Assembly: GCA_965275905.1 (NCBI GenBank)
Contig: CBDHYJ010000078.1
Span: forward strand, 83,773-147,772
Reading direction: 5' to 3'
Length of the DNA: 64,000 nt
Origin: Hyphomicrobiales bacterium
Lineage (GTDB): Bacteria > Pseudomonadota > Alphaproteobacteria > Rhizobiales > JAJFHC01
Shown: positions 1,112-19,977 of the stretch, in pieces
Position numbering within the stretch: position 1 is the first letter of the stretch
How the letters are laid out: each line of letters starts with the position of its first letter
Notes under the pieces: generated by a model
Database searches by the model: none
The model's input: only the letters and a program-made list of their open reading frames with translations
What the model was told of the DNA's origin: nothing
Translations under genes and position numbers: made by a program

Positions 1112-1240
1112 GCGTTCCCAGGGCCGGATATCCGGCGAGAGCAGACTTTCTGTCGGGTCTTGCCAATTGACGGCACGTCATGGGAACATCTGAGGAAAAC
1201 GGGAGGAAGGAGGCGCGAACGCAGAATTCGCGCGAAAGGG

Positions 1241-2074
1241 ATGAGTACTGCGATCTCGATTTATCATGGCAAGTTCGGCCGGGCGACGCTCTATCAGCTG
1301 AACCGCCCGATGACGACCCATGCCCATCGGGAGGGGCATCTGATATTCCTGCTCGAAGGGCACGATTCACATCAGAACGTATCGGGCAGACGGTACGAAC
1401 TCACGCCCATCTCGGCGACGGCAATTAATCCGTGGGAACCGCACGATTTCAACCCTGGAGACAGTAACGGCGGGATTTTCGCCCTTACGCTCTACATCAA
1501 ACCGATCTGGTTCCTGGAGGTTGCGCGCAGCGCGCGGTCGGCCTTGAGATTCGGGCGGACGCAGATCGAGGTGACCGACTTTATCGGCCGTTCAATGCAG
1601 AAGGTCGTAACCCTGCTTCTGGAAGACTGCGATAGCGACCTGTTTGACGGCTACCTCTACGAGTTGACGCAGGAATGTTACGACCAGTCGTGGCAGTGGA
1701 ATCCGGTCACGCCGCTGCGCAACGACATCCGGACGTCGTTCACGGACTTTCGCGTACGCAAGTCAATGAGGCTGATCAGCGAAAGTCTGGGCAATGAGAT
1801 CGAACTCGACCTGATTGCACGCGAATCCGGCCTGTCGCGTCCGCATTTCTACAAACTGTTCCGCCAGCAGACCGGCATCACACCGAATCTCTTCATGAAC
1901 ACGCTCAGGACGGAGCGGGCGATCCTGCATCTGACGGAGTCTGATCAGTCGATTACAGACATCAGTTTCGATCTCGGATTCTCGTCACAGAGCGGGTTTA
2001 CCCGGTTCTTCTGCTCCAATGTCGGGATGGCGCCGACGGAGTACCGCCGGGTCGCCCATATTCTGAACGCTTAA
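1241..2074 (+). CDS. AraC-family transcriptional regulator with N-terminal cupin-like domain
   Basis: HAHREGH cupin motif; C-terminal double HTH (LSRPHFYKLFRQQTG...SITDISFDLGFSSQSGFTRFF...GMAPTEYRR). Confidence 0.93.
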   Translation: MSTAISIYHGKFGRATLYQLNRPMTTHAHREGHLIFLLEGHDSHQNVSGRRYELTPISATAINPWEPHDFNPGDSNGGIFALTLYIKPIWFLEVARSARSALRFGRTQIEVTDFIGRSMQKVVTLLLEDCDSDLFDGYLYELTQECYDQSWQWNPVTPLRNDIRTSFTDFRVRKSMRLISESLGNEIELDLIARESGLSRPHFYKLFRQQTGITPNLFMNTLRTERAILHLTESDQSITDISFDLGFSSQSGFTRFFCSNVGMAPTEYRRVAHILNA

Positions 2075-2294
2075 GCGCCGTTTGCCGCGGTTTTTTACGA
2101 CCGTCCGTGAATTTATAATACTCAGGGATATGAGGCTTTTGGCCCCGCGTCCTAGTGTTTCAGGCCTAACGTGATCCGGAAAACCGGACGCCTGAAGAGG
2201 GAGGATATGCGTCTGCCATGCCGCTGACGCTAAATCGGGCTGAATACGGTGATTGTCCGGCTCCGGCAGCGCCCCGATGCACGGGGGACTGGGC

Positions 2295-3310
2295 GTGAGC
2301 CGTTTTCTTGAACGTCACCCGTTCTGGTCGCTTGCCATTCTGGTGGGCGTCATCGTTCTGCTGTGGCTGATCGTGGCGCCCTGGACGCCGGGCATGGTCT
2401 CGGTGATCGGCAAGAAAAAGGTCTTTCTGAACGCGCTGCTGAACGGCATTACGCTGGGCAGTCTCTACTTCCTGGTGGCCTCCGGCTTCACGCTGATCTT
2501 CGGCCTCATGCGCAACGTCAACCTGGCGCATGGCTCGCTCTATCTGTTCGGCGGCTATATCGGCTACGAGACCGTGAATCTGACGGGTGTCTGGATTCTC
2601 GGCTTCATCGTCGCCTTCATCGTCGTGGCGTTCTTCGGCCTGCTGCTGCAGATCGTCGTGTTCCGGCGCATGGAAGGCGAGGACCTGCGCCAGACCCTGG
2701 TCACGATCGGCATCTCGATCGTCGTGGCGGACCTGATGCTGTGGTACTGGGGCGGCGACTTCTACCAGATCCTCACGCCGGACTGGCTGTCCGGGCCTGT
2801 CGTCACGCCGATCGTCTCGGCGATCAAGCGCAGCACGGGCGATCCGATCTACCTCAAATACCCGATGGTGCGGCTGGTGATCTTCGCCGCATCCGTCGCG
2901 GTCGGCATCATCATGTGGCTGCTGCTGAACCGGACCCGTGTCGGCATGCTGATCCGCGCAGGCGTCGACGACCGAGAAATGCTCGCCGCGAGCGGCGTGC
3001 GCGTCCAGCTGATCTTCGTCGGCGTGTTCGCCTTCGGCGCGGGGCTGGCCGGTGTCGCCGGTGTCGTCGGAGGCACGTTCCAGTCCCTTGCGCCCGGCGA
3101 GGATACCCGGTTCCTGCTGGCGTCCCTTGTGGTCGTCATTGTCGGCGGCATGGGGTCGATCCCCGGGCGCCGCCCTCGGGGCGTTGCTGATCGGGCTCGC
3201 CGAGCAGTTCGGCTCCGTCTACATGCCGACCTATGCCGTCGTGCTGACCTTCCTGATCATGGTGCTCGTGCTGGCCTTCCGGCCGCAGGGCCTGTTGAGC
3301 GGCGCGCTAG
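2295..3310 (+). CDS. Branched-chain amino acid-type ABC transporter permease (LivH-like), frameshifted near 3165; ends approximate
   Basis: LVASGFTLIFGLMRNVNLAHG; VVIVGGMGSIPG continues as GAALGALLIG...FRPQGL in another frame. Confidence 0.85.
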
Positions 3311-3313
3311 GCC

Positions 3314-4419
3314 ATGGTGGCGATCGATGGCCACAGCAACACGCCGGACCGGCCGGAGCGCCAATACCCGGTCGGGACTCTCCGAGTGCGTCAGGCAGGT
3401 CCATCCGGCATCTACGTGGATGCTGGCGGCATTCCTGCTGTTCCTGCCGCCTTCGCCAGCGACTTCGTGCAGTTCCAGATTTTCGGCTGGGCCTTCATCC
3501 TCGGCATGATCGCGCTCAGCCTGATGTTTCTGGCGGGCTATGGCGGCATGGTCAGCCTGGTGCAGATGACGGTTGCCGGATGCGCCGGCTACATGATGGC
3601 GATCTCGGCGACCAGCGCGGTCACGAATATCAGCCTCGGCTGGCCGTGGTGGCTGGCGGTGCCGGTCGCGATCGGGATCGCAGTGCTGTTCGGCACCATC
3701 TCCGGCGCGCTGGCGGTGCGGACCGAGGGCATCTACACGATCATGATCACGCTGGCGATCGCCTCGGCGTTCTTCTATTTCACCCGCCAGAACTACACTC
3801 TCTTCAACGGGTTCAGCGGCTTCAATTCGGTCTGCCGCCCGAAATCTTCGGTGTCGACTGGCGCCAGCCGACGGCCGTTCTACTACCTCACGCTGTTGGG
3901 TATGGGCGACGTACTGAGCTATTTCGTCGTGCTCTATGTCTCGCGCTCGCCGTTCGGGCTGGCGCTGCAGGGCGTGCGCGACAACCCCGCCGGATGGCGG
4001 CACTCGGTTACAACGTCACCGCCCACCGCATCGCGGCCTATGCGTTCGCGGCCGTCATCGCGGCTCGTTGCCGGCATCCTCCTGACCTGGCAGAACAACC
4101 AGATCTCGCCCGGCACGGCCGTCCGAATCGGACCGGTCATCGATATCCTCGTCATTGCCGTGGTCGGCGGCCTGAGCCGCCCCATCGGCCCGTTCATCGG
4201 CGCATTCATCTATGTCCTGCTAAGGACGTTCGCACTGGACGTGCTCGTGGCGGTCGGCTGGCCGGGCAACGGTTCCAGCTGCTGATCGGCATGGGCTTCC
4301 TGCTGATCGTGTTCTTCTCGCCAGACGGTGCTCGGCCTCGGACCGCTGGCGCCCGGTTCCGCCGCCATCTGAGCATGACCAATTCGAGCCTGAGCCCGGG
4401 CGACGGAGGCGAGCGATGA
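3314..4419 (+). CDS. Branched-chain amino acid-type ABC transporter permease (LivM-like), several frameshifts
   Basis: GYGGMVSL, GIYTIMITLA, SPFGLALQGVRDN, VVGGL...GPFIGA, FFSPDG motifs spread across frames. Confidence 0.8.
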
Positions 4420-5203
4420 TCCAGACCGCCGCCGAACGCCTGTCTTCCGCCGGAACCGCCAACGCGCTGGAACTGCGCGGCGTGTCCCGCAATTTCGGTG
4501 CGCTCGCCGCGCTGACCGATGTCACGATGAGCGTGCGGCACGGGCGAGCGCCGTGCCGTGCTCGGGTCGAACGGTGCCGGCAAGACAACGCTGTTCAACT
4601 GCATCACCGGAGACTTCCCGCCGAGCTCGGGCACGATCCGCTTCTTCGGGGAAGACGTGACCACCCTGCCGCCGCACGAGCGTATCCGCAACGGCTTGCG
4701 GCGGACCTACCAGATCTCGCTTCTGTTCGGCGGGCTGACGGTGATCGACAACGTGTATCTGGCCTGCCGCGGTGTCTCGCGCGGCCGCTTCTCCCTGATC
4801 AGGCCGAGGCGTAGCGAGGCACTGATGCAGTCCGCGCTCGAACTGGTCGAAGCGGTGCACCTGACCGACGTGCGCGATCAGCCCGTCTCGGAACTCAGCC
4901 ACGGCCAGCAGCGGCAGCTCGAGATTGCGCTGGCCCTCGCCGGCGCGCCGCGGTTCATCCTGTTCGACGAGCCCGCGGCCGGACTGTCGCCGACCGAGCG
5001 GGCAGAGCTGATCGAGATCCTGACATCGCTGCCGGAGCATATCGGCTACATCATCATCGAACACGACATGGACGTGGCGCTGCAGGGTCGTCGAAAGCGT
5101 GACGATGATGCACAACGGCCGCATCTTCAAGGAAGGCCGCCCGGAGGAGATCGAGTCCGATCCGGAGGTGCAGGAACTCTACCTGGGAGGCGGCCATGAC
5201 TAG
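4416..5203 (+). CDS. ABC transporter ATP-binding protein (LivG-like), frameshifts near 4544 and 5083
   Basis: Walker [38 protein letters not shown]-terminal EVQELYLG ends at TAG 5201-5203 after reframing. Confidence 0.88.
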
Positions 5204-7428
5204 GTTTGACCGTCCCAGGAGCCCGCCCGCGCCGGTGCTGCAGGTCAGTGGTCTCAACGTCTACTACGGGCATTCCCATGCGCTGCAGGGCGTGGATCTG
5301 ACGCTTGATCACGGCGTTCTTTCCGTGGTCGGGCGCAACGGCATGGGCAAGACCACGCTGTGCATGGCCATCATGGGGCTGGTGCCCGGCATCGAGCGGT
5401 TCGATCCGGTTCAACGGCGAGGAACTGACAAACCTTTCTTCGTCGCAGATTGCCCAGTACGGCATCGGCTACGTGCCGCAGGGGCGCCGGTTGTGGCCGT
5501 CGCTCACCGTGCATGAGCATCTCCGGCTGGTCGCCGGAAACACGCGCGGCGCCTGGAGCATCGAACGCATCTACGACACTTTCCCGCGCCTGGCGGAACG
5601 GCGCAACAACGGCGGCGGGCAGCTTTCCGGCGGCGAACAGCAGATGCTGGCGATCTCGCGCGCGCTGCTGCTCAATCCGCAGTTGCTGGTCATGGATGAG
5701 CCGACCGAGGGGCTTGCCCCCGTCATTGTCAGCCAGGTCGAGGAGATGCTTCTGCATCTGGGCGACGAAAGTGACATTTCGGTGCTGGTGATCGAGCAGA
5801 ACATCGGTGTCGCCACGGAAATCTCCGAGCAGGTCGCCATCATGGTCAACGGCCGGATCAACCGGGTGATGGACGCCGGGCGGCTGGCCGCCGACAAGGA
5901 TCTGCAGCAGAGACTGCTGGGTGTTGGACGCCACGCGCACGATGACGACCTGGAGCTGCAGGCGCAGGCCGGTGCCGCGGGTGAGGCAGAGGACGTATCC
6001 GAAAGCCGCAAGGGGCCGGTCAGGATCTTCGTCTCCAATCCGACCATCCCGACGCGCTGGTCGAAGCCCGCGCCGCTCGCCCGGATTGAATCTGCGGCAC
6101 GCCTCGACTCCGGATCGGCGGCGGGAAGGACGGCTTCGGCCGGTCCGGCGCAGCATGTCGAATTGCGGCCGCTGTCGGCCGGTCGCGAGGACGTGGTCCT
6201 CGTTGCCGGCACGCTCGACACCAAGGGCGACGAGATCCGCTTCATCCGGGATATCCTCAAGGACGCAGGGATTCGCACCCGGCTGGTGGATCTTTCGACC
6301 ACCGGCAAACTGTCGAGTGCCGATATCCCGCCGCACCAGATCGCGGCCTATCACCGCCACGGGCCGAGCGCGGTCTTCACCGACGACCGGGGCAAGTCCG
6401 TGGCCGGCATGGCCGAGGCGTTCGAGGCCTGGATCAGCCGTCAGGGCGGCATAGCCGGCATTATTTCGGCCGGCGGGTCGGGCGGCACGGCCATGGCGAC
6501 GCCCGCCATGCGCGTGCTGCCTGTCGGCGTGCCGAAGATCATGATCTCGACGGTCGCCTCCAGCGATGTCAGCCGCTATGTCGGACCGGCGGATATCATG
6601 ATGATGCATTCGGTGGCCGACGTTCAGGGCCTGAACTCGATCACCCGCGAAGTCCTTGCGAACGGGGCCAATGCCATGGTTTCGATGGTCAAGGCCCGGC
6701 AGGAACGGCATCGCACGCGGGACACCGGGGCAGGGGATCTGCCGGCGATCGGGCTGACCATGTTCGGCGTCACCACTCCTTGCGTCCAGCAGATCACGCC
6801 CGCCCTCGAAAACGACTACGACTGCCTCGTGTTCCATGCCACCGGTGTCGGCGGACGCTCGATGGAGAAGCTGGTCGACAGTGGCCTGCTGACAGGCGTC
6901 ATCGACATCACCACCACGGAAGTCTGCGACCTTTTGATGGGCGGGGTTTTCGCGGCCACGGAAGACCGGTTCGGCGCGATGATCCGTGCGCAGATGCCCT
7001 ATGTCGGGGCTTGCGGGGCGCTCGACATGGTCAATTTCGGAGCGCCGGACACGGTGCCCGCGCATTATGCGGACCGTCTGTTCTACGAGCACAATCCCCA
7101 GGTCACGCTGATGCGCACGACAGCCGAGGAAAACGAGCGCATGGGCCGCTGGATTGGCGAGAAGCTGAACCAGATGGACGCGCCGGTCCGCTTCTTCCTG
7201 CCCGAAGGCGGCGTATCGCTGCTCGACGCGCCCGGTCAGGCGTTCCACGACCCGGCAGCCGATGCGGCGCTCTTTACAGCACTCGAGCAGACCGTGCGCC
7301 AGACGTCGAACCGGCAGCTTATCCGCCTGCCGCACAATGTGAACGATCAGGAGTTTTCCGATGCGGTCGTCAGGGCGTTTCTGTCCCTGCACGGCGGCCA
7401 GTCAACGCGCAGAAGTGCCAGGAGATAA
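5196..7428 (+). CDS. Fusion of LivF-like ABC ATPase and Tm-1-like (UPF0261) ATP-binding domain; one frameshift near 5385
   Basis: GRNGMGKTT, LSGGEQQML, MDEPTEGLAP, then in the same frame GTLDTKG, GGSGGT, PKIMISTVAS, TMFGVTTPCV, VFHATGVGG, GALDMVNFG, HNPQVTLMRT. Confidence 0.85.
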
Positions 7429-7431
7429 TGC

Positions 7432-8265
7432 ATGCCACGATTTGAACGCTCGACCCTTCTCGAAAAATACCGGGGCATGATTGCCCGGGGCGAGCCGATT
7501 ATCGGTGGCGGCGCGGGGACGGGGCTGTCCGCCAAGTGCGAGGAGGCCGGCGGCATCGACCTCATCGTGATCTACAATTCCGGGCGCTACCGAATGGCCG
7601 GGCGAGGCTCTCTGGCCGGCCTCATGCCCTATGGCGACGCCAACCAGATCGTGGTCGAGATGGCGAGCGAAGTGCTGCCCGTGGTGAGCAACACGCCTGT
7701 GCTCGCGGGCGTCAACGGGACCGATCCGTTCCGGCTGATGGACGTGTTTCTCGATGAACTGAAGGCGATCGGCTTCTCCGGCGTGCAGAACTTTCCGACG
7801 GTCGGACTGATCGACGGCACGTTCCGGGCCAATCTCGAAGAGACCGGCATGTCCTACGGCCTTGAGGTCGACATGATCGCGAAGGCTCACGAGAAGGACA
7901 TGCTGACCACGCCCTATGTGTTCAACGAGGACGATGCGACAGCCATGGCGAAGGCCGGCGCGGACATCATCGTCTGCCATCTGGGGTTGACTACGGGCGG
8001 GTCGATCGGGGCCGAGACGGCCCTCAAGCTGGAGGACTGCTCGGCCATGGTCGATGCCTGGGCCCAGGCAGCTCTCAATGTGAACGGGGATGCCATCGTG
8101 CTGGTGCACGGCGGGCCGGTTTCATCGCCTGAGGACGCGGACTACGTGCTCAGGAACACAAGCAACTGTCACGGGTTTTACGGTGCGTCTTCCATGGAGC
8201 GTTTGCCGACCGAGGTCGCGCTCACGGAACAGACGCGCAAATTCAAGCAGATCGGCGCGAGCTGA
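7432..8265 (+). CDS. TIM-barrel signal transduction / PEP-hydrolase-like family protein (homologous to the Tm-1 C-terminal domain)
   Basis: [45 protein letters not shown]. Confidence 0.9.
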
Positions 8266-8319: not shown

Positions 8320-11300
8320 ATGTCGGGTCAATTGATCGGTGAACTGATTCTCTGGCTGATCGTGGCGGTTATCGTCATCGCGATCATCTACTGGGTCATG
8401 AACTGGCTTTATCGCCGGTCCACCAAGGAGGTCTCGTTCGTACGGACCGGTTTCCTTGGCGAAAAGGTGGTGATCAATGGCGGCGCATTCGTGTGGCCGA
8501 TCGTCCACGATATCACGCCGGTGAACATGAACGTGCTGCCGATCGCGGTGACCCGCGACAGGGATGACGCACTGATCACACGTGACCGGATGCGTGTCGA
8601 CGTCGACGCGGAATTCTATGTGCGTGTCGCACCCACAAAGGACTCCGTGTCGGTCGCTGCGGCAACACTTGGCCGCCGGACCATGGAGCAGGAGCGGCTG
8701 CACGCGCTTCTGGTCGGCAAGTTCATCTCGGCACTCAGATCGGTTGCCGCGGAGATGGATCTGCAGGAGATGCACGAGCAGCGCGGCGATTATGTCATGC
8801 GGGTGCGGGCTGCCGCGCAGGAAGGGCTGGCCCAGAACGGTCTTGAGCTCGAATCCGTCGCCATCACCGATATCGACCAGACGGACCTTGAGTACTTCAA
8901 TCCTTCCAACCAGTTCGATGCCGTCGGTCTGACGCAACTGATCGAGGACATCGAGGCCAAGCGCAAGCTGCGCAACGACATCGAGCAGGACTCGATGATC
9001 AGGATCAGGGCACGAAACCTGGAAGCCGAGAAACAGTCTCTCGACATCGAGCGTGAAAGCGAGTCCGCTCGTCTTGAGCAGGAACGCGAAATCGAGTCGA
9101 ACCGCGCGGCCCAGCGGGCCGAGATCGCACGCCAGCGTGCCGAACGGGAGACGGAAGCCGAACAGGCGCAGATCACCGCACGTGAGGAAATCGAGAAGTC
9201 GCGGATTGCCAACGAGCACGCCATCAGTCAGGCGCGCATCGCGTCTGAACGGGAGATCCGTCAGAAGGAAATCGAACGCCAGCAGATCATCGATGCCGCC
9301 GAAATCGCGTCGCGTGAGCAGGTCGAGATGGCGCGGATTACGCAGGAGCGCTCGGTCACCGAGGCAAGGATCGCAAACGAGCAGGAGACGCAATCCAAGG
9401 ATATCGCCCGCCGCCGCGCCGTTGAGGAAGCGCAGATCGCGGCCAATGAGGCGACCGAGCGGGCACGCATTGCCCAGGAGAAGGCCGTTACCGAGGCCCG
9501 CATCACCAAGGACGAGGAAACCCAGCGCCGCGAAATCGAGGCGCGTGAGGAAACCGAGAAGGCGCGTATTGCGCAGGAGCGGGTGCTGACCGATGCCCGT
9601 ATCCACAACGAGGAAGAGACGCGGCGGCGCGAAATCGCCCGTAACCTCGCTGTCGAGGAAGCCGAGATCGCATCACGCGAAGCGACCGAGAAACTGCGCA
9701 TTGCCCAGGAGACCGTGGTCAACGAGGAACGCATAGCCTCGGACCGCAAGATCCGGGATATGGAGATCGAGCGCACGCGCGTGCTGGAAGAAGCTGAAAT
9801 CGCGGCTCAGCAGGCGACCGAAGCGGCCCGTATCGCGCGGGAGAAGAAGCTCGCCGCTGATCGTATTGCGTCCGAACAGAACACCAGGGAGCTCGAAATC
9901 GAGCGGCGCAAGATCGTGGAGGAAGCCACGATCACGGCCCAGGAAGCGATCGAGGCGACACGGATCGCCCAGGAAGAGCGGGTGCGCGGGCTGGAGATCG
10001 CCCGCAACCGTGCGGTCGACGAGTCCGAGATTGCAGCCCGTGAGGCCGTCGAGGCTGCACGCATCGCGCAGGAGAAGTCGCTCGCCGTCGAGCGCATCGA
10101 GAGCGAAGGCGCGACGAAGGAACGTCAGGTTGAACGCGACAAGGCGGTTCGGGAGGCGGAAATCGCCGCCCACGAGGCCACCGAAGCCGCACGCATCGCG
10201 CAGGAAAAGCGGATCGCGGCGGAACGCATTGCCTCGGAAGAGGAAACGCGCAAGCGCGAGATCGTCCGCAACCGCGAGGTCGATGCCGCCGATATCGCCA
10301 CGCAGGAGTTCATCGAGACGGCGCGGATCGAGCAGCGGGTGAAGGTCGACGCCGAGCGGATCGCCGCCGACGAGGCGACGACGCTTCGCGAATTCGTGGC
10401 GCGCGAGAGCACGGAAGCGGCCCGGATCGCACAGGAAAGAAACACCGAAGCCGAGCGCATTCTGGCCGACCAGGAAACCCGTTCGCGCGAGATCGAGCGC
10501 AACGAGGCGGTCGAGATGGCGGAGATCGGGTCGCGGCGCAGCGTCGACCAGACCCGGATCGAGCGCGAGAAGGAGACGAGTGTCGACCGGATCGGGCGGG
10601 ACGAGGAGGTGCGCAAGCTCGAGATCGCACGCAACGAAGCGCTCGATGCCGCGCAGATTGCCGCCGACAAGGCGATCGAGGCCGCCCGCATTTCGCGTCA
10701 GAAGACGATCGACGCGGAACGCATTCTGGCCGAACAGGAGACCAGAGGCCGGGAGATTGCCCGCGACCAGGTTGTCGAAAGCTCCGAAATCGCCAAGCGC
10801 GATGCCGTCGAGAAGGAACGGATCGCCATGGAGCTGCGGCTGGAGCAGGAACGTATCGATTCGTCCGAGACCCGCGAGATTGCCGATATCGGCCGCAAGA
10901 AGAAGGTCGAGGAGGCGGAAGAAGATCGCGTCATCGCGCTTGCAGGCAAACGCATCGAGCGCGCGGAATCCGATGCCCAGGTCAAGAAGGCCGATATCGA
11001 GGCCCAGCGCGATGTCGATACAGCCGACATTTCGCGCGAGCAGGTGCTCGATGCCGTGAAACTCGAACGCAAGCGTGCGCTCGAGCAACTCGAGGTGGCG
11101 AGGCTCCAGGCCCTGCGTGAGGCAGAGATCGCGTCGCGCGAGGAAATCGAGCGCGCCCAGATCGCATCCGAGCGCGGTCTGGACGAGGCCCGGATCACCC
11201 GCGAGCGCGACCGCCGCAAGCTCGAAGTCGAGCGCGAGCGTGAGGTCGAGTCGGCCGAGATGGAAAAGGCCATCGTGCTTTACCAGAAGTCGCTTGAGGA

Positions 11301-12000
11301 ATCGGCCGCGCAGGCTGAAGCCGATGCGGCTCGTGCCAAGGCCGCGGAGGCCGAGGAGCAGGTCAAGACCGTCCGCGAGAGCGAGGAGGCCAAGCGCCGC
11401 CGGTCCGTCGACGTGATCATGGCCGAGAAGGAAGCCGAGGCGAAGAAGATCGCCGCGGAAGCCGAGAAAGTGCGCGCCGCGGTCGAAGCCGAGGCCCAGC
11501 GTCTGTTGAACGAGGCCGAGAACGTCCTCACCGACGAGGCGCGCTACGCGCTGTTCCGCCGCAAGCTGCTGGAACACGTGGAAGGCATTGTCTCGGCGTC
11601 GGTCAAGCCGATGGAGAAGATCCAGGATATCCGGATCATGCAGCTCGACGGCATGAGCGGCGGCGGGGGCGGCGACCGCAAGAATGCGACCGACGAGGTC
11701 ATCGACTCCGCCCTGCGCTACCGCGTCCAGGCGCCGCTGGTCGACAGCCTGATGTCCGATCTCGGCATCGACGGCAGCAACATCTCCAAACTGGGCGGTC
11801 TGGTGCGGGAAGCACGCGACATGCAGTCCATCGCCGAGAAGGCCGAGAAACAGGCGTCTGCTGGTGACGGCGGCTCCGATAGCTCGGGCGACGGCGGTGG
11901 TTCGGGCGGCGGAGATGACGGCGGCGGATCCGGCGGCTCAGGCGGCTCGGGCAGTTCGCGGCGTTCGGGCGGCCGGCGCTCAACCAGATCCAAGAAGTAG
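8320..12000 (+). CDS. Giant SPFH/band-7 flotillin (YqiK-like), 1226 aa, with an expanded hendecad helical region and a Gly/Ser/Arg tail
   Basis: N-terminal TM helix; SPFH core (FVRTGFLGEKVV, LITRDRMRVDVDAEFYVRV, NGLELESVAITDIDQT, NQFDAVGLT); flotillin C-terminus (VKPMEKIQDIRIMQ, SALRYRVQAPLVD). Confidence 0.9.
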   Translation: MSGQLIGELILWLIVAVIVIAIIYWVMNWLYRRSTKEVSFVRTGFLGEKVVINGGAFVWPIVHDITPVNMNVLPIAVTRDRDDALITRDRMRVDVDAEFYVRVAPTKDSVSVAAATLGRRTMEQERLHALLVGKFISALRSVAAEMDLQEMHEQRGDYVMRVRAAAQEGLAQNGLELESVAITDIDQTDLEYFNPSNQFDAVGLTQLIEDIEAKRKLRNDIEQDSMIRIRARNLEAEKQSLDIERESESARLEQEREIESNRAAQRAEIARQRAERETEAEQAQITAREEIEKSRIANEHAISQARIASEREIRQKEIERQQIIDAAEIASREQVEMARITQERSVTEARIANEQETQSKDIARRRAVEEAQIAANEATERARIAQEKAVTEARITKDEETQRREIEAREETEKARIAQERVLTDARIHNEEETRRREIARNLAVEEAEIASREATEKLRIAQETVVNEERIASDRKIRDMEIERTRVLEEAEIAAQQATEAARIAREKKLAADRIASEQNTRELEIERRKIVEEATITAQEAIEATRIAQEERVRGLEIARNRAVDESEIAAREAVEAARIAQEKSLAVERIESEGATKERQVERDKAVREAEIAAHEATEAARIAQEKRIAAERIASEEETRKREIVRNREVDAADIATQEFIETARIEQRVKVDAERIAADEATTLREFVARESTEAARIAQERNTEAERILADQETRSREIERNEAVEMAEIGSRRSVDQTRIEREKETSVDRIGRDEEVRKLEIARNEALDAAQIAADKAIEAARISRQKTIDAERILAEQETRGREIARDQVVESSEIAKRDAVEKERIAMELRLEQERIDSSETREIADIGRKKKVEEAEEDRVIALAGKRIERAESDAQVKKADIEAQRDVDTADISREQVLDAVKLERKRALEQLEVARLQALREAEIASREEIERAQIASERGLDEARITRERDRRKLEVEREREVESAEMEKAIVLYQKSLEESAAQAEADAARAKAAEAEEQVKTVRESEEAKRRRSVDVIMAEKEAEAKKIAAEAEKVRAAVEAEAQRLLNEAENVLTDEARYALFRRKLLEHVEGIVSASVKPMEKIQDIRIMQLDGMSGGGGGDRKNATDEVIDSALRYRVQAPLVDSLMSDLGIDGSNISKLGGLVREARDMQSIAEKAEKQASAGDGGSDSSGDGGGSGGGDDGGGSGGSGGSGSSRRSGGRRSTRSKK
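9169..10917 (+). repeat. 53 tandem 11-aa (33-bp) coding repeats with a 44-aa super-period inside the flotillin gene
   Basis: Manual alignment from QITAREEIEKS to DIGRKKKVEEA; Ile at position 2 in 51 of 53 units (one Val, one Phe). Confidence 0.92.
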
Positions 12001-12012: not shown

Positions 12013-12450
12013 ATGGCGAGAGTCTTCACATCAAGCGTGATCGGCGCGCCCGCCGACAAGGTCTGGGCCCGGATCCGTGACTTCAACGGTCTGCCGAGCT
12101 GGCATCCGGCGATCCGGGAGAGCCAGATCGAGGGCGGCGAACCGTCGGACAAGGTCGGCTGTATCAGGGACTTCTACCTGCAGAACGGCGACCGGATCCG
12201 CGAGCAACTGCTGGGCCTGTCGGACTACGACATGTTCTGCACCTATTCGATCCTGGAAAGCCCGATGCCGCTCGAGAACTACGTGGCCACGCTGCGCTTG
12301 ACACCGATCACGGACGGCAACAGGACGTTCGCCGAGTGGACGGCGGAGTTCGACTGCGCGCCGGAAGAGGAATCCGGTCTCGTTTCCGGCATTGGTGAAA
12401 ATGTGTTCCAGGGCGGCTTCGACTCGCTCAAGCGGCACTTCGGAAACTGA
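12013..12450 (+). CDS. SRPBCC/START-fold (polyketide cyclase 2) protein, copy 1
   Basis: IGAPADKVWARIRDFNGLPSWHP, GCIRDF, YSILESPMPLENYVAT. Confidence 0.9.
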   Translation: MARVFTSSVIGAPADKVWARIRDFNGLPSWHPAIRESQIEGGEPSDKVGCIRDFYLQNGDRIREQLLGLSDYDMFCTYSILESPMPLENYVATLRLTPITDGNRTFAEWTAEFDCAPEEESGLVSGIGENVFQGGFDSLKRHFGN

Positions 12451-12459
12451 CGGTCGGGC

Positions 12460-12903
12460 ATGGTGAAAGTGGTCAAGAGCACGATCCTCGACGCACCCAT
12501 CGATGAGGTGTGGGACGTGCTGCGTGACTTCAACGGTCACGACCACTGGCACCCGGCCGTTGCCGACAGCACTGTCGAGCGCGGCTCACCGTCGGACCGG
12601 GTGGGCTGCGTCAGGCGCTTTCACCTGCAGGACGGTTCGGAGCTGCGCGAGCAGCTGCTGACGTTGTCCGACATGGAAACGGCGTTCAGCTACTGCCTGC
12701 TCGATACACCGGTGCCGCTGTTCAACTACGTCGCTCATGTGCGGCTGATTCCGGTAACCGACGGCAACCGCACGTTCTGGCAGTGGGAGTCGCGCTTCGA
12801 CACGCCGAAGGGTCGCGAGAGCGAGCTTGAGCAACTGGTCGGAACGGACATCTACGAGGCGGGCTTCGAGGCCGTTCGCCAGCATATGGGCCTGGCGGCC
12901 TGA
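12460..12903 (+). CDS. SRPBCC/START-fold protein, copy 2 (paralogue of the preceding gene)
   Basis: LDAPIDEVWDVLRDFNGHDHWHP, GCVRRF, aligns colinearly with copy 1. Confidence 0.9.
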   Translation: MVKVVKSTILDAPIDEVWDVLRDFNGHDHWHPAVADSTVERGSPSDRVGCVRRFHLQDGSELREQLLTLSDMETAFSYCLLDTPVPLFNYVAHVRLIPVTDGNRTFWQWESRFDTPKGRESELEQLVGTDIYEAGFEAVRQHMGLAA

Positions 12904-12922: not shown

Positions 12923-13744
12923 ATGGCATATACAGTCAGGACATTCGACCAACTCGGCGAAGCCGCCAGCGCGATGGCGTCGGACCGCGCCGCGCGCTTC
13001 CTCGGCGGCGGCACGCTGGTGATGCGCGCGGTGAACGAGGGCGATCAGTCATTCCGGACGATCGTGCGTGCGACCGACCAGTCCCTGAAACAGATCCGGC
13101 CGGCGTCGAACCGGATCGAGATCGGGGCTGCCGTCACCATGTCGGACATCCTGGCGAGCCAGGACGCGGCATTCCTGCATCCCGCGGCGCGAGCGGTCGG
13201 CGGCCCGGCGATCCGCAATATGGCGACGATCGGCGGCAATCTGTTCGCGCGGTCTCCCTACGGCGACTTTACGACGGCCTTGCTGGCGCTGGATACCACC
13301 GTCTCGACGGTTGGCGGCATGGGCAGCCGGGATATGGCCCTTGCGGAGTTTCTGGCCCAGCGCGACAGCGGGCAGGCGGGACTCGTTGCGGGCGTTTCCG
13401 TGACGCGTCCCTCGACACCGGACGCGTTACGCTTCGTCAAGGTGAGCCGCGTGAAGCCGAAGGGCATCTCGGTTCTGAGCATTTCGGCACTCCTGCCGGT
13501 CTCCGGCGGACGGGTCAGCGGCGCTGCGGTCGCCTACGGGGCGATGGCGCCGACACCGATCCGGGTACCAGCAGTCGAGCGCGCACTCGAAGGCCAGACA
13601 TTGGACGAGGCCGGTATCGCAGGCGCCCTTGCCGTGGCAACGGAAGGCTGTGCCCCGGCGACGGATGCAATTGCGTCCGAATGGTACCGCCGGGAGGTGG
13701 CGCCGGTGCATCTGAAACGGCTTCTGCTCGGACAGGCGAGGTAG
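12923..13744 (+). CDS. Xanthine-oxidase-family molybdoenzyme, FAD-binding (CoxM-like) subunit
   Basis: FLGGGT, IGAAVT, AIRNMATIGGNL, DAIASEWYRR; RBS-like purine tract upstream of ATG 12923. Confidence 0.92.
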   Translation: MAYTVRTFDQLGEAASAMASDRAARFLGGGTLVMRAVNEGDQSFRTIVRATDQSLKQIRPASNRIEIGAAVTMSDILASQDAAFLHPAARAVGGPAIRNMATIGGNLFARSPYGDFTTALLALDTTVSTVGGMGSRDMALAEFLAQRDSGQAGLVAGVSVTRPSTPDALRFVKVSRVKPKGISVLSISALLPVSGGRVSGAAVAYGAMAPTPIRVPAVERALEGQTLDEAGIAGALAVATEGCAPATDAIASEWYRREVAPVHLKRLLLGQAR

Positions 13745-13746
13745 CA

Positions 13747-14229
13747 ATGGCGCGTAAACCGATACAGTTCAGGCTCAACGGCTCGGAGAAGGCCGTGTTT
13801 GTCGAGGACGGCCAGAACCTGCTCGACACCGTGCGCCGCGAGGTCGGCGACTTCGCGCCGAAATACGGTTGCGGGCAGGGCACGTGCGGCTGCTGTACCG
13901 TACTGATCGACGGCGAACCTCATCTTTCCTGCCTGACCCTTGCCGAGACCTGCGAAGGCCGTGCCATCGAGACGACCAGCGCGCTCGCCGACGGCCCCGA
14001 CCTCCATCCCCTGCAGGCCGCATTTACGGAGCATTTCTCAGCACAATGCGGCTTCTGCACGCCCGGCATGCTGATGGCCGCCAAGGCTCTGCTCGACCGC
14101 AATCCGCAGCCGACACGCGAAGACGTGGTCGAGGCGATCTCCGGCAACATCTGCCGGTGCACCGGCTACGAGTCGATCATCAATGCCATTCTCGATGCCG
14201 CATCGCGGCGTAACGCGCGCAGCGCCTGA
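13747..14229 (+). CDS. Xanthine-oxidase-family molybdoenzyme, 2x[2Fe-2S] (CoxS-like) subunit
   Basis: GCGQGTCGCCTV, QCGFCTPGM, GNICRCTGY. Confidence 0.95.
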   Translation: MARKPIQFRLNGSEKAVFVEDGQNLLDTVRREVGDFAPKYGCGQGTCGCCTVLIDGEPHLSCLTLAETCEGRAIETTSALADGPDLHPLQAAFTEHFSAQCGFCTPGMLMAAKALLDRNPQPTREDVVEAISGNICRCTGYESIINAILDAASRRNARSA

Positions 14230-14241: not shown

Positions 14242-16011
14242 ATGCTCGAATTCAGAAAAGATCTTTTTGCCGATGAACGCGACGACGATCTGAACGAGAT
14301 CGGCCAGCCGACACAGCGCCAGGACATACTGGGTCATGTCACCGCCCGGTCCCGGTTCTTCGACGACCACGCGTTTGACGGCCTGCTGCACCTTAAGTGT
14401 GTGCGCAGCCCACACCACCATGCGCGCATCCGCTCGGTCGACTGTTCGCAGGCGGAAACGGCGCCCGGCGTTGTGCGGATCATCCGTCCCGGCGACGTCC
14501 CGGTCAATCTCAACACGCTCCTGAGCCTGATCGGCTTCGGCAGGGATGACGAGCCGGTGCTCGCGGTCGACAAGGTCCGCTACAAGGGCGAGCCGCTGGT
14601 CGCCATCATTGCGGAAAGCGAAATTGCGGCACGGGATGCCGTCCAGCTCGTCAGGGTCGACTACGAGGTCCTGCCGCACGTGCTCGAGGTCGAGGAGGCC
14701 CTGAAGCCCGGTGCGCCGACGGTCAACGATACCTATCCGGAGAACTACTTCGTCTACCACGAGCATTACGACCGCCAGAAGCTTCGCTACGGCGATGTCG
14801 AGCGGGGCTTTGCCTCGGCCGATCATGTGCTCGAGGAGCGCTACCAGATGTCGCCGATCGAGCAGGCGCCGACCGAAACGAACGGATGCATCGCCGCGCC
14901 GGAGAACAATGACCGGTTCGTCGTGCACACGTCCACGCAGGCGCTGTTCTTCTCGCTCGGGACGACCGCAAAGCTGCTCGATATGCCGTCGAACCAGTTG
15001 CATTTCATCGGTGGCACGGTCGGCGGCGGCTTTGGCGGCAAGGTCGACTCCCTGTGTGAGCCGCTTGCCGTGCTCGGGGCCAAATTCACCGGCCGGCCGG
15101 TGCGCTACGTGTTCGACCGGGAAGAGGAAATGCAGGTCGGCGCGCCGCGCGGCGCGGAGGTCTGGTACATCAAGGACGGGGTCATGAATGACGGGCGCAT
15201 CGTCGCCCGGCAGATCCGTGGATACTTCGATGCCGGCGCCTATACCCGGCTGTCGAGCTACGCGATCATCAAGTGCACCGCGCATCTGCCGGGGCCCTAC
15301 ACGATCCCCAACGTCAAGTCGGACGCGTTCTGCGTCTACACCAACCGGACGCCGGCAACCGCCATGCGCGGCTTCGGCATTACGGGCGTCGATTTCGCGC
15401 TCGAATGCCACATGGACAAGATGGCGCATCTGGTCGGCATGGATCCGATCGAGATGCGTATCCTCAATGCCTATCGCGACGGCGATATGAAGGCGCACCG
15501 GCGCGAGGCCAAGAACTGCGCGCTGATCGAGTGCTGCCAGGTGGCCGCGGAAAAGGCTGGCTGGACCATCCGCGACGAGTTCAGGCAGATGGCCTCGATG
15601 AGGGACGGCGGCGGGGACCGGGCGCTGATCCCGCAGACGGCGATGGACAACGAGGGACGTATCGGCGGTGGCGCCGCACCGTCGCCGGTCTCGACGCCGC
15701 AGCCCGCGCCACTGATCACGCCGGGCGTGCAGCCGCAGACCGTGACGGCACCTCCGCCGCAACCTCAACCGGCACCTCCGCCGGCGCAGGCGCAGCCACC
15801 GCAACCTGCCGCCCCGCCGCCGGCCCAACAGACCACGCAGCCGCCACAACCCGCGGCTCCGCCGCCGCAGCCGCATCCCCCGGTGCAGACACGGCCGGAA
15901 CCGCATAGCGAGCCGGCCGGTTCGGCACGGCCGTCGCCGTCGCCACGGCCCGGGTCGCAGCGCCATGGCGCGCACCGGTCATCTTCCATTTCAGGCATGA
16001 GGAGGCGCTGA
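14242..16011 (+). CDS. Molybdopterin-binding subunit, N-terminal half, with a ~110-aa Pro/Gln-rich C-terminal tail
   Basis: RSPHHHARI, KVRYKGEP, GGGFGGK, DAGAY, PYTIPN, AMRGFG, DPIEMR. Confidence 0.92.
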   Translation: MLEFRKDLFADERDDDLNEIGQPTQRQDILGHVTARSRFFDDHAFDGLLHLKCVRSPHHHARIRSVDCSQAETAPGVVRIIRPGDVPVNLNTLLSLIGFGRDDEPVLAVDKVRYKGEPLVAIIAESEIAARDAVQLVRVDYEVLPHVLEVEEALKPGAPTVNDTYPENYFVYHEHYDRQKLRYGDVERGFASADHVLEERYQMSPIEQAPTETNGCIAAPENNDRFVVHTSTQALFFSLGTTAKLLDMPSNQLHFIGGTVGGGFGGKVDSLCEPLAVLGAKFTGRPVRYVFDREEEMQVGAPRGAEVWYIKDGVMNDGRIVARQIRGYFDAGAYTRLSSYAIIKCTAHLPGPYTIPNVKSDAFCVYTNRTPATAMRGFGITGVDFALECHMDKMAHLVGMDPIEMRILNAYRDGDMKAHRREAKNCALIECCQVAAEKAGWTIRDEFRQMASMRDGGGDRALIPQTAMDNEGRIGGGAAPSPVSTPQPAPLITPGVQPQTVTAPPPQPQPAPPPAQAQPPQPAAPPPAQQTTQPPQPAAPPPQPHPPVQTRPEPHSEPAGSARPSPSPRPGSQRHGAHRSSSISGMRRR

Positions 16012-16013
16012 CG

Positions 16014-17039
16014 ATGGCTCTGCATCGCGGACGCGGCGTTGCCGCAATCAACTATCCGATCGGCATGAACCTCGGCGGGGACCCGAGCCAGGCGCTCGTG
16101 CACTCCAATCCGGACGGCAAGTTCACGGTTGCCCTGTCGTCGATCGATCTCGGACAGGGCATGAAGTCGGTGACGCGGCAGATCGCGGCTGAAACCCTCG
16201 GAATTCCCGTCACGGACGTTTATGTCGACACTGCCGACAGCGATACCGGCCCGCACTGCATGGGCAGCTTTGCCTCGCGCGGCACCCACCGGGTCGGCAA
16301 CGCGGTCATTGCGGCGGCCAAGGAAGCCCGCGGCGTGCTGCTGGAGGCGGCGGCCGAGGAACTGGAGGTCAATGCGGACGATCTCGAGACCGACGGCAAG
16401 GGCAACATCCATGTCAAGGGCGCCCCGCAGCGCTCGATCACCACGACCGAAGTGGCGATCGCCGCTCAGTTCAAGCAGGGCAAGACCATTTCAGGGCGCG
16501 GCATTTTCCTGATCCCCATGTCGGACGTCGATCCCGAGACCGGCGAGATGACCCCGGTGTCCTGTTATGCCCATGCCTGCCTCGTTGTCGACGTGGAGGT
16601 CGATGACGAGACGGGCGAGGTCGAGGTGCTGGAGATCAACAGCGCCTACGAAGTCGGCCGTGCGCTCAATCCGAAGCTGGTCGAACAGCAGCTTGTCGGC
16701 GGGGCCTGGATGGGCCTGAGCCACGCGCTCTACGAGACCACCGAACCGTATTATCCGGACAGGAGCCACGGGCCGGTCGACTTCAACGAGTATCTGATGC
16801 CGGGTCCGGGCGATGTCGCAACCCACAATATTGCCGTGCTTGAGCGGCCGGCGCCTGACGGGCCGTATGGCGGCAAGGGGCCGGGCGAGATGTGCGCCAA
16901 TCCGGTCCTGCCCGCCGTCACCAATGCGGTGTTCAACGCGGTCGGCGTGCGCATAGACGAACTGCCGATCACGCCGGAAAAGGTGCTGCGCGGCATCAAG
17001 GCCCAGGGCGGAGCGGCCCCGGCGGGACGGACGGGCTAG
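16014..17039 (+). CDS. Molybdopterin-binding subunit, C-terminal half
   Basis: DLGQG, GSFASRGT, VEVDDETGEV, GRALNP, GKGPGE (catalytic Glu position), LPITPE; own AGGAGG RBS. Confidence 0.92.
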   Translation: MALHRGRGVAAINYPIGMNLGGDPSQALVHSNPDGKFTVALSSIDLGQGMKSVTRQIAAETLGIPVTDVYVDTADSDTGPHCMGSFASRGTHRVGNAVIAAAKEARGVLLEAAAEELEVNADDLETDGKGNIHVKGAPQRSITTTEVAIAAQFKQGKTISGRGIFLIPMSDVDPETGEMTPVSCYAHACLVVDVEVDDETGEVEVLEINSAYEVGRALNPKLVEQQLVGGAWMGLSHALYETTEPYYPDRSHGPVDFNEYLMPGPGDVATHNIAVLERPAPDGPYGGKGPGEMCANPVLPAVTNAVFNAVGVRIDELPITPEKVLRGIKAQGGAAPAGRTG

Positions 17040-17051
17040 GAGGGTGTCGGC

Positions 17052-17933
17052 GTGGCGGTAAGGCGTGAAATAGTCGGCATTGACGGGCCGGACACGCTTG
17101 AGAGCGCTCTGCGCGCCGCCCAATACCTGGCGGATGGCGGCCTGTCCACCGCGGCCTATCTGGCGCTTGCTCTTGGCAAGCCGCTGCTGCTTGAAGGCGC
17201 GCCCGGTGTCGGCAAGACCGAGGCCGCCAAGGCGATTTCCTCCGTTCTCGGACGCCAGTTGATCCGGCTGCAGTGTTACGAGGGCATCGATGCCGCCCAT
17301 GCGCTCTACGAATGGAACTATCCGCGCCAGATGCTGGCGATCCGGCAGGCCGGCGAGGAATCGGTCGACATCTACCGCGACGAATTCCTGATCGAGCGGC
17401 CGATGCTTGCCGCGCTTCAGGCGCCGCGCAACACCGTCCTGCTGATCGACGAGATCGACCGCTCCGATCACGAGTTCGAGGCCTTCCTCCTGGAATTCCT
17501 GTCCGACTTCCAGATCTCGATCCCCGAACGCGGGACGGTCCGGGCGCACGAGCATCCGGTGGTGGTCCTTACGTCGAACCGGACCCGCGAACTGCACGAA
17601 GCGCTCAGGCGACGCTGTGTCTATCACTGGATCGCGTATCCGGACGCCGAACGCGAGGCGCAGATCGTCATGATGCGCGCCTCCAGCGTTGCCGAAGCGA
17701 CAGCGCAGGCCGTGGTCGCCGCCGTCGCCCGGATGCGGCAGGAGCCGCTCACGAAGCCGCCGGGCGTGGCCGAGACCGTCGAGTGGGCGGAGGCCGCGAC
17801 TCTGCTCAACAGTCAGGGCGCGCCGTGGCCGGAGGCCTTCCGGCGGGCCATCGGCGTGGTGCTCAAGGACGAGGAAGACCTCGCCTATCTGGCACCGCGT
17901 CTCGACTCTCTCATAGCAGGAGAGGCGGCATGA
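17052..17933 (+). CDS. MoxR-family AAA+ ATPase (CoxD-like)
   Basis: LLEGAPGVGKT, RLQCYEG, LLIDEIDR, LTSNRTRELHEALRRRC. Confidence 0.93.
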   Translation: MAVRREIVGIDGPDTLESALRAAQYLADGGLSTAAYLALALGKPLLLEGAPGVGKTEAAKAISSVLGRQLIRLQCYEGIDAAHALYEWNYPRQMLAIRQAGEESVDIYRDEFLIERPMLAALQAPRNTVLLIDEIDRSDHEFEAFLLEFLSDFQISIPERGTVRAHEHPVVVLTSNRTRELHEALRRRCVYHWIAYPDAEREAQIVMMRASSVAEATAQAVVAAVARMRQEPLTKPPGVAETVEWAEAATLLNSQGAPWPEAFRRAIGVVLKDEEDLAYLAPRLDSLIAGEAA

Positions 17934-19051
17934 CGGACCTGCGGCAGATACCCGATGCGGCGAAGCCGTTTGTCGAGTTTCCCGCGGTTCTGCGCGGGCA
18001 CGGATTTTCGGTCGCGCCCGAGCAGACAATGAATTTCATCACGGCAATCGAACTGCTGGGGCCGAGAGGCATGAGCGATATCGCCAATGCGGCTCATGCG
18101 ACGCTTGCGCCAGCGCCTGAGCGGCGCGACGAGTTCGACGCGCTGTTCCGCATGTTCTTCATGGGCCAGACGGTCGCCGCGCCGATCGTCAGCGACGATG
18201 ACGAAGAAGAGCAGATGCGGGTGCAGGAGGAGGGCGGCACGTTCGAGCCGCTCGACTCCGACGATATCAACGAAACCGGCGAAGCGGCCACCACGACCGA
18301 GGCACTCTCGGTGCGGGAATTCCCGGCCGGGGATCGCGATGAGGTGCTGCGCCGGTTCGCCCGCGCGGTGCCGGACCGTATCCCAGTGCGAAAGGGACAC
18401 AGGCGCGCCGTGGTGCGCCAGGGCCCCGGCTTCGATCTGCGGGCGGTGCTGCGTCAGGCGGTGCGCAATGACGGCGAGATCATCGCCCTGCCGCGCCTCA
18501 AACGGAAGATGCGCCAGCGCGCGATCCTGCTGCTGATCGACGTGTCCGGTTCGATGAAGGCGCAGACGGAAGATCATATGCGCTTCGCTCATGTCCTTGC
18601 GCAAGCCGCCGACAGGATCGAGGTCTTCACGCTCGGTACACGGCTGACGCGGATCACGCCCGCCCTGCGCTACAGGAACGCGGATCATGCGCTGGCCGCC
18701 GCGTCCTCGACCGTCTCCGACTGGGACGGCGGCACACGCATCGGCGATGCCCTGCAGGCGTTTCTCTCGATCCCGCGTTTCGCCGGGTTCGCGCGCGGCG
18801 CCCTGACGCTGATCCTTTCCGACGGGCTGGAGCGTGGCGAACATGACGCCATGCTTGATGCGGTGGCACGGCTCTCGCGCCGGGCCTGGCGCATAAGCTG
18901 GCTGTCGCCGCTCGCCACCGGCCCCGGCTTCGAACCGCAAACGGCCGCGCTCAAGGCGATCAGGCCCCTCATTGACGACCTTGCCGACTGCAGCTCCCTC
19001 GACCGTCTCTGCACGCATGTGCTCGAGCTTTCCCGGGAGCAGATGCCATGA
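17930..19051 (+). CDS. VWA-domain CoxE-like protein
   Basis: MIDAS motif DVSGS, FTLGTRLTRIT, WDGGTRIG, ILSDGLERG, WLSPL; ATGA overlap with the MoxR gene. Confidence 0.92.
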   Translation: MTDLRQIPDAAKPFVEFPAVLRGHGFSVAPEQTMNFITAIELLGPRGMSDIANAAHATLAPAPERRDEFDALFRMFFMGQTVAAPIVSDDDEEEQMRVQEEGGTFEPLDSDDINETGEAATTTEALSVREFPAGDRDEVLRRFARAVPDRIPVRKGHRRAVVRQGPGFDLRAVLRQAVRNDGEIIALPRLKRKMRQRAILLLIDVSGSMKAQTEDHMRFAHVLAQAADRIEVFTLGTRLTRITPALRYRNADHALAAASSTVSDWDGGTRIGDALQAFLSIPRFAGFARGALTLILSDGLERGEHDAMLDAVARLSRRAWRISWLSPLATGPGFEPQTAALKAIRPLIDDLADCSSLDRLCTHVLELSREQMP

Positions 19052-19926: not shown

Positions 19927-19977
19927 TCAAGGAGAACCAAGAGGGGCTGAAGTGCCTCCAAAAAAGGAGACAAGAAC

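Follow-up and report, generated by a model that had tools for sequence, protein, structure and literature searches.

A giant flotillin from a Hyphomicrobiales bacterium carries 53 unbroken 11-residue repeats that may form the staves of a tall membrane-anchored cage

The subject of this analysis is a giant flotillin encoded in a 64,000-nucleotide stretch of DNA from a Hyphomicrobiales bacterium (GenBank assembly GCA_965275905.1, contig CBDHYJ010000078.1, positions 83,773 to 147,772 of the forward strand), hereafter the window, whose first letter is position 1. The protein combines a hydrophobic N-terminal helix, an SPFH (Band_7) domain, a very long predicted helix built largely of 11-residue repeats (hendecads), here called the stalk, and a C-terminal Flot domain. 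Its identification as a flotillin, first made from the sequence alone, agrees with the Pfam domains (PF01145, the SPFH/Band_7 domain near the flotillin N-terminus, at 52.3 bits with a cut-off of 23.6; PF15975, the C-terminal Flot domain, at 121 bits), with profile matches in the PDB and with the Foldseek ranking. At 1,226 amino acids, it is about twice as long as Escherichia coli YqiK, which we take to be about 550 amino acids. The features of the gene are listed here with their coordinates and strand:

8320..12000, forward strand: giant flotillin (SPFH2b / YqiK-like), 1,226 amino acids, 138 kDa (open reading frame call; Pfam Band_7 and Flot).
8332..8409, forward strand: hydrophobic helix at the N-terminus (about residues 5-30) with basic residues after it (sequence; helix 3-33 in the structural model).
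8455..8901, forward strand: SPFH (Band_7) domain, residues 46-194 (Pfam PF01145, E 9e-14).
8932..11517, forward strand: the predicted wall helix in full, from about residue 205 to 1066, 862 amino acids, free of Pro (sequence and model).
9169..10917, forward strand: the 53-hendecad core, marked by Ile at position 2 and by a four-unit cycle of 44 amino acids (sequence).
10918..10992, forward strand: module with a 3-residue register shift, residues 867-891 (sequence).
10993..11289, forward strand: nine further hendecads in the shifted register, residues 892-990 (sequence).
11422..11769, forward strand: Flot domain, end of the wall and cap region, residues 1035-1150 (Pfam PF15975, E 3e-35).
11863..12000, forward strand: Gly/Ser-rich tail with a basic end, variable among orthologues (sequence comparison).

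The N-terminal helix is likely the single membrane anchor, with the remainder of the protein in the cytoplasm, a topology predicted from the positive-inside rule and from the prediction for YqiK (PMC10434171). One gene with a Flot domain was found in the source genome, which is 86% complete, so that a homo-oligomer with staves of equal length made from one gene is likely. No NfeD gene, a usual but not universal operon partner of prokaryotic flotillins, adjoins the flotillin, the only NfeD match of the genome being on another contig beside a different SPFH gene, and against the FloT equivalog NF058507 the protein scores 28.1 bits, far below the curated cut-off of 700.

The core of the stalk, residues 284-866 (nucleotides 9169-10917), comprises 583 amino acids, exactly 53 x 11, and Ile occupies position 2 in 51 of the 53 units, the exceptions being V604 and F692; the unbroken run that had been read from the sequence is confirmed. 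Four unit types were said to recur in a 44-residue cycle, and this cycle is obeyed in 40 of 52 unit-to-unit steps. Self-identity reaches 0.27, 0.40 and 0.38 at lags of 11, 44 and 77, whereas no lag in 200 shuffles exceeded 0.18. Because the hendecad register extends about four units upstream (residues 240-283) and downstream to residue 888, residues 284-866 are only the Ile-marked core of a longer helix. A 3-residue shift follows, and then nine more 11-mers at residues 892-990, matching the approximately nine counted originally; Pro is absent between residues 196 and 1096, in line with the Pro-free region noted before. The period of the stalk is 11/3 and not that of the heptad, as had been claimed: Ala periodicity peaks at 3.665 with a power of 5111, against 78 at 3.5. 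Matches to leucine-rich repeats (LRR) were rejected as artefacts of periodicity.

At the DNA level the units are old, the longest exact repeat in the region being 17 nucleotides and the best pair of units being identical at 26 of 33 bases; Tandem Repeats Finder (TRF) reported no tandem array in the repeat region. The correctness of the assembly was judged from this low repetitiveness and from comparison with a genome of the same genus (G001, two contigs), in which the stalk is of equal length and no insertion or deletion separates the two sequences across positions 8320-11900. Between the two genomes the repeat differs by 139 synonymous and 9 non-synonymous codons, and the head by 62 and 7. 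The repeat is genuine, not an assembly artefact, and is translated and kept by purifying selection.

Stalk length was measured between the conserved residues N219 and N1064, which served as anchors (845 in the window protein), and compared in two sets of relatives. Both anchors were present in 118 of 120 database homologues, these 120 being the ones listed of 1,485, and the stalk lengths of the 118 together with the query fall into four classes modulo 11, with 84, 20, 13 and 2 rows. The 20 proteins of class 4 are a separate flotillin subfamily, 7 residues off register, one of which (P0046) is lengthened via a single internal duplication of the stalk start and not via 11-mers. Two metagenome proteins of class 2 (P0005 and P0008) were set aside as register exceptions, as they contain frameshift-like stretches, and apparent flotillin fusions to a PEP-hydrolase-like protein, an SRPBCC protein or a cyclase (P0008, P0009, P0011 and P0070) were rejected, as their junctions look out of frame.

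Genome loci, after exclusion of eight that end at contig edges or are truncated, yielded 96 unique long proteins (query included) with stalks of 471-878 residues and 29 different lengths, all of which belong to just two classes modulo 11, three residues apart: 62 in class 0 and 34 in class 8. The 62 carry the 3-residue-shift module, always 171-206 residues before the C-terminal anchor; the other 34 run unbroken, those of Roseibium and Pseudahrensia reaching 60 units, so that 53 units are neither unique nor a record. The longest stalks among the orthologues are 867 and 878, and named species cover much of the range: Jannaschia pohangensis (534), Bradyrhizobium (603), Roseobacter sinensis (710) and Pseudahrensia aquimaris (798). 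Whole proteins measure 957-967 amino acids in Bradyrhizobium and up to 1,264 in the largest relatives. Short alphaproteobacterial relatives (stalks 204, 237, 248 and 347) keep the same 11-register as the window protein, and a few differ by 7, such as L052, whose stalk of 197 is 7 residues short of register. In some metagenome-assembled genomes built from short reads, stalk lengths may be assembly collapses. The forecast that orthologues would differ by multiples of 11 amino acids is thus borne out, except for one optional 3-residue module. Neighbouring enzymes of similar divergence show gaps of 1-3 amino acids in 67 of 76 alignments (the UPF0261 part) and in 50 of 64 (the VWA protein), and several others of like divergence align without gaps. 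No shift of 1-2 residues was found in any of the 96 long stalks, which, set against the frequent gaps in several neighbours, argues against a pure mutation effect. The exact length is not tightly held, since closely related species bearing the operon described below differ by up to 19 units (589, 666, 754 and 798 in one small clade). The suggestion that repeat number acts as a ruler therefore survives only in a passive form, in that length changes in steps of 11; the spread argues against a tuned length.

The faces of the helix were examined in 3,258 units from 82 proteins, in only two of which does the stalk contain Pro (one residue each). Position 2 is a large hydrophobic residue in 99% of units and position 8 in 72%; Ala, Gly or Ser form a stripe at positions 3, 7, 10 and 11 (65, 46, 37 and 49%); and charged residues dominate positions 1, 5, 6 and 9. 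On an 11/3 wheel, the Ala stripe is flanked by Ile2, at about -115 degrees from its centre, and by position 8, at about +115 degrees, the two being about 130 degrees apart on the short arc. A canonical hendecad coiled coil has a single a-d-e-h seam of large residues; here the a-d-e-h set is Ala-rich, and the positions expected beside Ile in such a core (5, 6 and 9) are among the charged ones. As judged from sequence, these faces appear to fit a curved sheet of side-by-side helices, concave where the small residues lie, better than they fit a classical coiled coil, and the hydrophobic flanks at positions 2 and 8 around the Ala stripe agree with the original prediction that the repeat would suit the staves of a barrel. 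A profile of 12 shorter relatives matched only flotillin-1 chains in the PDB (E 3e-10), and Foldseek placed flotillin first, with major vault protein also among its matches. Human flotillin-1 has four (A/G)EAE motifs exactly 11 residues apart (287, 298, 309 and 320, from a profile alignment read by eye), so the 11-periodicity is likely a general trait of flotillins.

The giant flotillin lies within an operon of import and breakdown genes, whose other members in the window are:

1160..2074, forward strand: AraC-family regulator (profile match; present in 59 of 65 long loci).
2253..5199, forward strand: two LIV-type ABC permeases and a first ABC ATPase, with frames disturbed by 1-nucleotide indels relative to G001.
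5196..7428, forward strand: second ABC ATPase, fused to a UPF0261 (Tm-1/MarK-like) domain (profile match).
7432..8265, forward strand: PEP-hydrolase-like TIM barrel, PF09370 (profile match).
12013..12903, forward strand: two SRPBCC (Polyketide_cyc2) proteins (profile match).
12923..14229, forward strand: flavin adenine dinucleotide (FAD) and 2Fe-2S subunits of a molybdenum (Mo) hydroxylase (profile match).
14242..16011, forward strand: MoN, the N-terminal half of the split Mo subunit (nearest solved relative, the nicotinate dehydrogenase large subunit 3HRD_A).
15622..16011, forward strand: the MoN tail, rich in Pro, Ala and Gln, which closes with a conserved basic peptide (seen only where the locus also has a giant flotillin).
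16014..19051, forward strand: C-terminal half of the Mo subunit, MoxR-type AAA+ ATPase and CoxE-like VWA protein.
19048..22446, forward strand: amidohydrolase, lactonase-like protein of the metallo-beta-lactamase fold and isochorismatase-family hydrolase.

The Mo-hydroxylase is thus encoded by four genes, with its large subunit split. The ABC genes, UPF0261, both SRPBCC proteins, the FAD and FeS subunits, both Mo halves and the AAA protein are present in 65 of the 65 long loci that have at least 6 kb on both sides, and the core of the operon as a whole in 64-65 of them. A close match to MoN occurs in 92 of 401 genomes of the order, about 70 at an identity of at least 70%. MarK, a UPF0261 protein, acts as an aromatic kinase (PMC12624787). 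Relative to G001, more than 20 small indels, mostly of 1 nucleotide, cluster at positions 3168-5389 in the ABC permease and ATPase genes (also at 2150 and 17416); they are likely consensus errors, decay being the alternative. Directly past the operon, at 22475-23191, is what we take to be a ParA-like ATPase gene; farther on (24672-32305), what is presumably a penicillin-binding protein 1C-like gene on the reverse strand stands beside a forward gene for a 1,833-amino-acid protein, presumably alpha-2-macroglobulin-like, the pair being unrelated to the flotillin.

The probable counterpart of the operon in Bradyrhizobium diazoefficiens is expressed. Genes bll3376-3386 have the gene order of the window operon (PMC6759348), and bll3380, 2,901 nucleotides long, lies between genes of 834 and 438 nucleotides, as in the window (PMC6201568); from gene order and lengths, bll3380 is likely the orthologue of the giant flotillin. 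It is transcribed, at 205 transcripts per million (TPM), and falls 4.7-fold in a phaR mutant, in which the five neighbours checked are co-regulated, with a fall of 3.9-5.3-fold (PMC6201568). A 109-kDa flotillin has been detected by proteomics in this species, with up to 14 peptides (PMC11996625).

Comparison of loci revealed three arrangements of these genes. In arrangement A, flotillins with stalks of 347-446 residues accompany the importer, UPF0261, barrel and SRPBCC genes, and no Mo-hydroxylase was found in any of 48 short-flotillin rows, among them 21 loci whose downstream sequence extends for at least 6 kb; some of the rows are near-duplicates. Arrangement B consists of Mo-hydroxylase clusters that lack a flotillin and in which MoN ends at its domain. 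Arrangement C is the merged operon, in which a giant stalk occurs together with a MoN tail of 63-251 amino acids in 69 of 69 loci, one of them apparently frameshifted; no stalk shorter than 471 was seen among flotillins beside a Mo-hydroxylase. In a set of loci picked by similarity to MoN and not by flotillin (10 of 16, plus 20 others spanning 53-79% identity), the tail occurs in all 15 loci that have a giant flotillin (34-150 amino acids; one duplicates an earlier locus) and in none of the 15 that lack one. The existence of hydroxylase-free short relatives in the same importer operon and the restriction of the tail to flotillin-linked hydroxylases are new.

Several further features of these loci were observed. 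Short-flotillin operons (L151:4864-6111) contain a gene for a 415-amino-acid substrate-binding-like protein between the permeases and the ATPase, which is missing from the window at 4285-4416. At L151:12500-17000 and in L156, L157, L164, L166, L167, L180 and L185, the second SRPBCC protein is fused to an extra domain of about 350 amino acids, and hydrolases follow; the last hydrolase in short-flotillin operons (about 445 amino acids) often starts with a conserved F-x-G-W-G-G-like extension and a flexible linker, which is possibly another candidate docking peptide (the families were named by eye). One genome (G006) has a second copy of the operon (L045:4471-5347, contig C3) in which the flotillin frame stops at 287 amino acids, while the other copy (L037) is intact.

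By a strict criterion, the MoN tail ends in a peptide of the form R/P-F...G-x-R-R-R in 62 of 69 loci, and the codons for R, F and G vary synonymously; the window protein has Ser in place of Phe. The tail is predicted to be disordered and, in the model, is undocked on its own chain. Encapsulins and bacterial microcompartments load cargo through terminal peptides, and the vault is another protein compartment. The anatomy of the tail is that of a docking or cargo peptide, for which it is a candidate: like a cargo peptide, it sits at the end of a flexible linker, is encoded together with a putative shell gene and is absent from homologues that lack the shell (the 15/15 and 0/15 above, probably of one origin). 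Unlike encapsulins and microcompartments, whose shell fold is unrelated, the putative shell here would be membrane-anchored.

Giant flotillins of the SPFH2b group, with a strongly expanded coiled coil, 800-1000 amino acids and no NfeD, were named in 2009 (Hinderhofer et al., PMC2636767), whose supplement lists NP_770020 of B. japonicum USDA110 and YP_001240744 of Bradyrhizobium BTAi1 as 'gigant SPFH2b w/o NfeD'. The window flotillin has the same expanded coiled coil and lack of NfeD, and at 1,226 amino acids (with relatives up to 1,264) it exceeds the size then given. NP_770020 is presumably bll3380. Periodicity, the register rule, the operon and structure do not appear in the passages of the 2009 paper that were available (PMC2636767). 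Our literature search found neither work on the structure or function of a giant flotillin nor a paper joining hendecads with flotillins or SPFH proteins, although a 2023 survey of hendecads (Martinez-Goikoetxea and Lupas), which lay outside the search, may list SPFH proteins. E. coli YqiK and Bacillus subtilis FloT (NF058507) have the same two Pfam domains as the window flotillin, which differs in having no adjacent NfeD, in scoring 28 against 700 bits and in a stalk about four times that of its shortest relatives.

The closest structural precedent is the human flotillin-1/2 cage (PDB 9BQ2 and 9L3G), described as a lipid-anchored hetero-44-mer 22 nm tall, with a wall of 44 parallel helices of 186-189 amino acids that has no heptads, makes two small bends at pi and 3-10 motifs, and forms a tilted right-handed barrel with mixed polar contacts (bioRxiv 10.1101/2024.05.09.593390; PMC13000311). 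The length of the wall helix (44-189 amino acids) was proposed in 2024 to set cage size (bioRxiv 10.1101/2024.05.09.593390). The window flotillin shares the order of SPFH domain, long wall helix and cap, the non-heptad wall and the EA motifs; it differs in having one transmembrane anchor, probably one gene product, a wall of about 860 amino acids and a regular Ile/Val seam.

Taken with these precedents, the evidence inclines us, with a confidence only a little above even, to propose that the repeats of giant flotillins form long, in-register staves of a tall membrane-anchored cage or tube closed by Flot domains. By analogy with the solved flotillin, HflK/C and stomatin cages, the single N-terminal helix would anchor the protein and the SPFH domains would ring a patch of the inner membrane on its inner face; the staves would stand parallel and in register, capped at the far end by the Flot domains. 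Between neighbouring staves, Ile2 would meet Val, Ile or Thr8, and the Ala stripe would face the concave side; gain or loss of whole 11-mers would leave these seams unturned, so that length changes would come in 11s, and the 3-residue shift would introduce a slight bend comparable to the 3-10 'hoop' in human flotillin. Such a cage would likely serve the import-and-breakdown operon around it. More speculatively, the ring may enclose the operon's ABC importer: SPFH cages elsewhere enclose FtsH (bioRxiv 10.1101/2024.05.09.593390) as well as aquaporin-1 and UT-B (PMC12407830), which would make the importer a natural client. More boldly still, the lengthened lumen or wall could hold the Mo-hydroxylase via the tail peptide, and true enclosure of the enzyme by this route seems unlikely.

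The size of the particle can be predicted within limits. The 87 nm first calculated holds as the contour of the 583-residue core and fails as the full length, since the predicted helix of about residues 205-1066 has a contour of 129 nm. Human flotillin fits its 186-189-residue wall into a 22-nm particle, so tilt shortens the contour; with the human figure of 0.118 nm for each wall residue (a maximum, because the SPFH domains are counted in the 22 nm), the 862-residue helix would span about 100 nm, at a tilt of 45 degrees about 90 nm, and the core alone, scaled likewise, 60-70 nm. We predict a height of roughly 60-130 nm and, for a 24-44-mer, a mass of 3.3-6.1 MDa. With a predicted wall helix about four times the usual flotillin length, the cage is likely unusually tall.

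Several points weigh against this proposal and its extension to the hydroxylase. An AlphaFold2 monomer model (residues 1-1169) is of low confidence (mean pLDDT 60.7, pTM 0.27) and divides the stalk into helices 205-404, 428-676, 711-849 and 876-1066, with breaks at 405-427, 677-710 and 850-875, and the copy of the PDB that we searched holds no structure of a giant flotillin. A strict 11/3 period implies nearly straight staves, and the human wall is a tilted barrel, so the geometry may differ from that of known cages; 44 straight staves would form a tube only about 14 nm wide, a narrow space for a dimeric Mo-hydroxylase. Steps of 11 residues are also the expected outcome of recombination between repeats alone. 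An apparent co-scaling of tail with stalk (raw Spearman 0.42 over 69 loci) vanished once kinship was removed, 19 of 36 contrasts having the same sign with r 0.13, on a quickly built tree with long-branch warnings that served only for contrasts and rough grouping. Giant stalk and tailed enzyme probably go together from one origin, and, as they look like a single evolutionary event, the 15/15 split does not amount to 30 independent observations; any of the proteins that this merger brought in could be the partner of the tail.

Of the alternatives, the one that survives best concerns the length and is compatible with the same cage fold: the extra length would have no function, having arisen by recombination with selection for register only, and the tail would serve something else, for instance joining the halves of the split Mo subunit or binding an SRPBCC protein. 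The wide spread of lengths among close kin with one operon points this way, as do the failure of tail and stalk to co-scale, the short relatives whose 347-residue stalks serve the same importer and kinase module, and the overlap of two of the last three Arg codons of the tail with the ribosome-binding site of the next gene. Against it stand the absence of stalks below 471 among the flotillins seen beside the hydroxylase and of the hydroxylase from all 48 short-form rows, the strong purifying selection under which a protein of 100-140 kDa is kept, and the tail-less MoN homologues in intact hydroxylase clusters, which imply that the tail is not needed for joining the halves. We consider this alternative possible but rather unlikely; what is likely is that length is needed above some minimum and is not finely tuned.

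It is also conceivable, if unlikely, that the stalk is segmented or folded back on itself into a shorter, multi-layered wall, in which the Ala stripe packs helices between layers. An Ala stripe is typical of tightly packed antiparallel helices too, and the breaks at 405-427 and 677-710 in the monomer model favour such a fold, but the register passes through both of them, the stalks lack a conserved Gly turn and (but for the two single residues noted) Pro, and units have been lost at many different sites, which fixed hairpins should forbid. AlphaFold reportedly introduces spurious bends into long coiled coils and copes badly with hendecads (PMC11676326), so the breaks themselves are weak evidence. 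Small rods, in which the SPFH heads ring or cluster and the repeats form tethers or spacers of two to four helices with an Ala core and no closed wall, would suit the regular Ala-rich a-d-e-h pattern of positions 7, 10, 11 and 3 and belong to an established architecture, but they are improbable, as they leave Ile2 and the hydrophobic position 8 exposed about 115 degrees from the core, and solved flotillins use the same helix as a barrel wall.

The cage proposal, carried to its furthest extent, would give many Alphaproteobacteria a membrane-capped flotillin tube of 60-130 nm serving as a metabolic compartment over the importer-kinase-like fusion, with the hydroxylase loaded by a cargo peptide and the wall lengthened in 11s when the enzyme joined, a picture that we think unlikely to hold in full. 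If length were mere drift, the protein would be no more than a commonplace repeat expansion within a family on record since 2009. The value of the finding lies not in the number 53 but in a testable natural length series and in a candidate client with a candidate docking peptide. Few clients of bacterial flotillins have been named, and the operon comparison offers candidate clients together with a specific peptide; the natural series (stalks of about 200-878 amino acids in one register), available in culturable, expressed systems such as Bradyrhizobium, offers a test of wall length against the height of SPFH cages. If the proposal is true, the cargo of this SPFH cage would be a soluble enzyme, and its height would vary in nature and could be counted from the gene; a tube that gains 1.3-1.65 nm per unit would be a useful scaffold for design.

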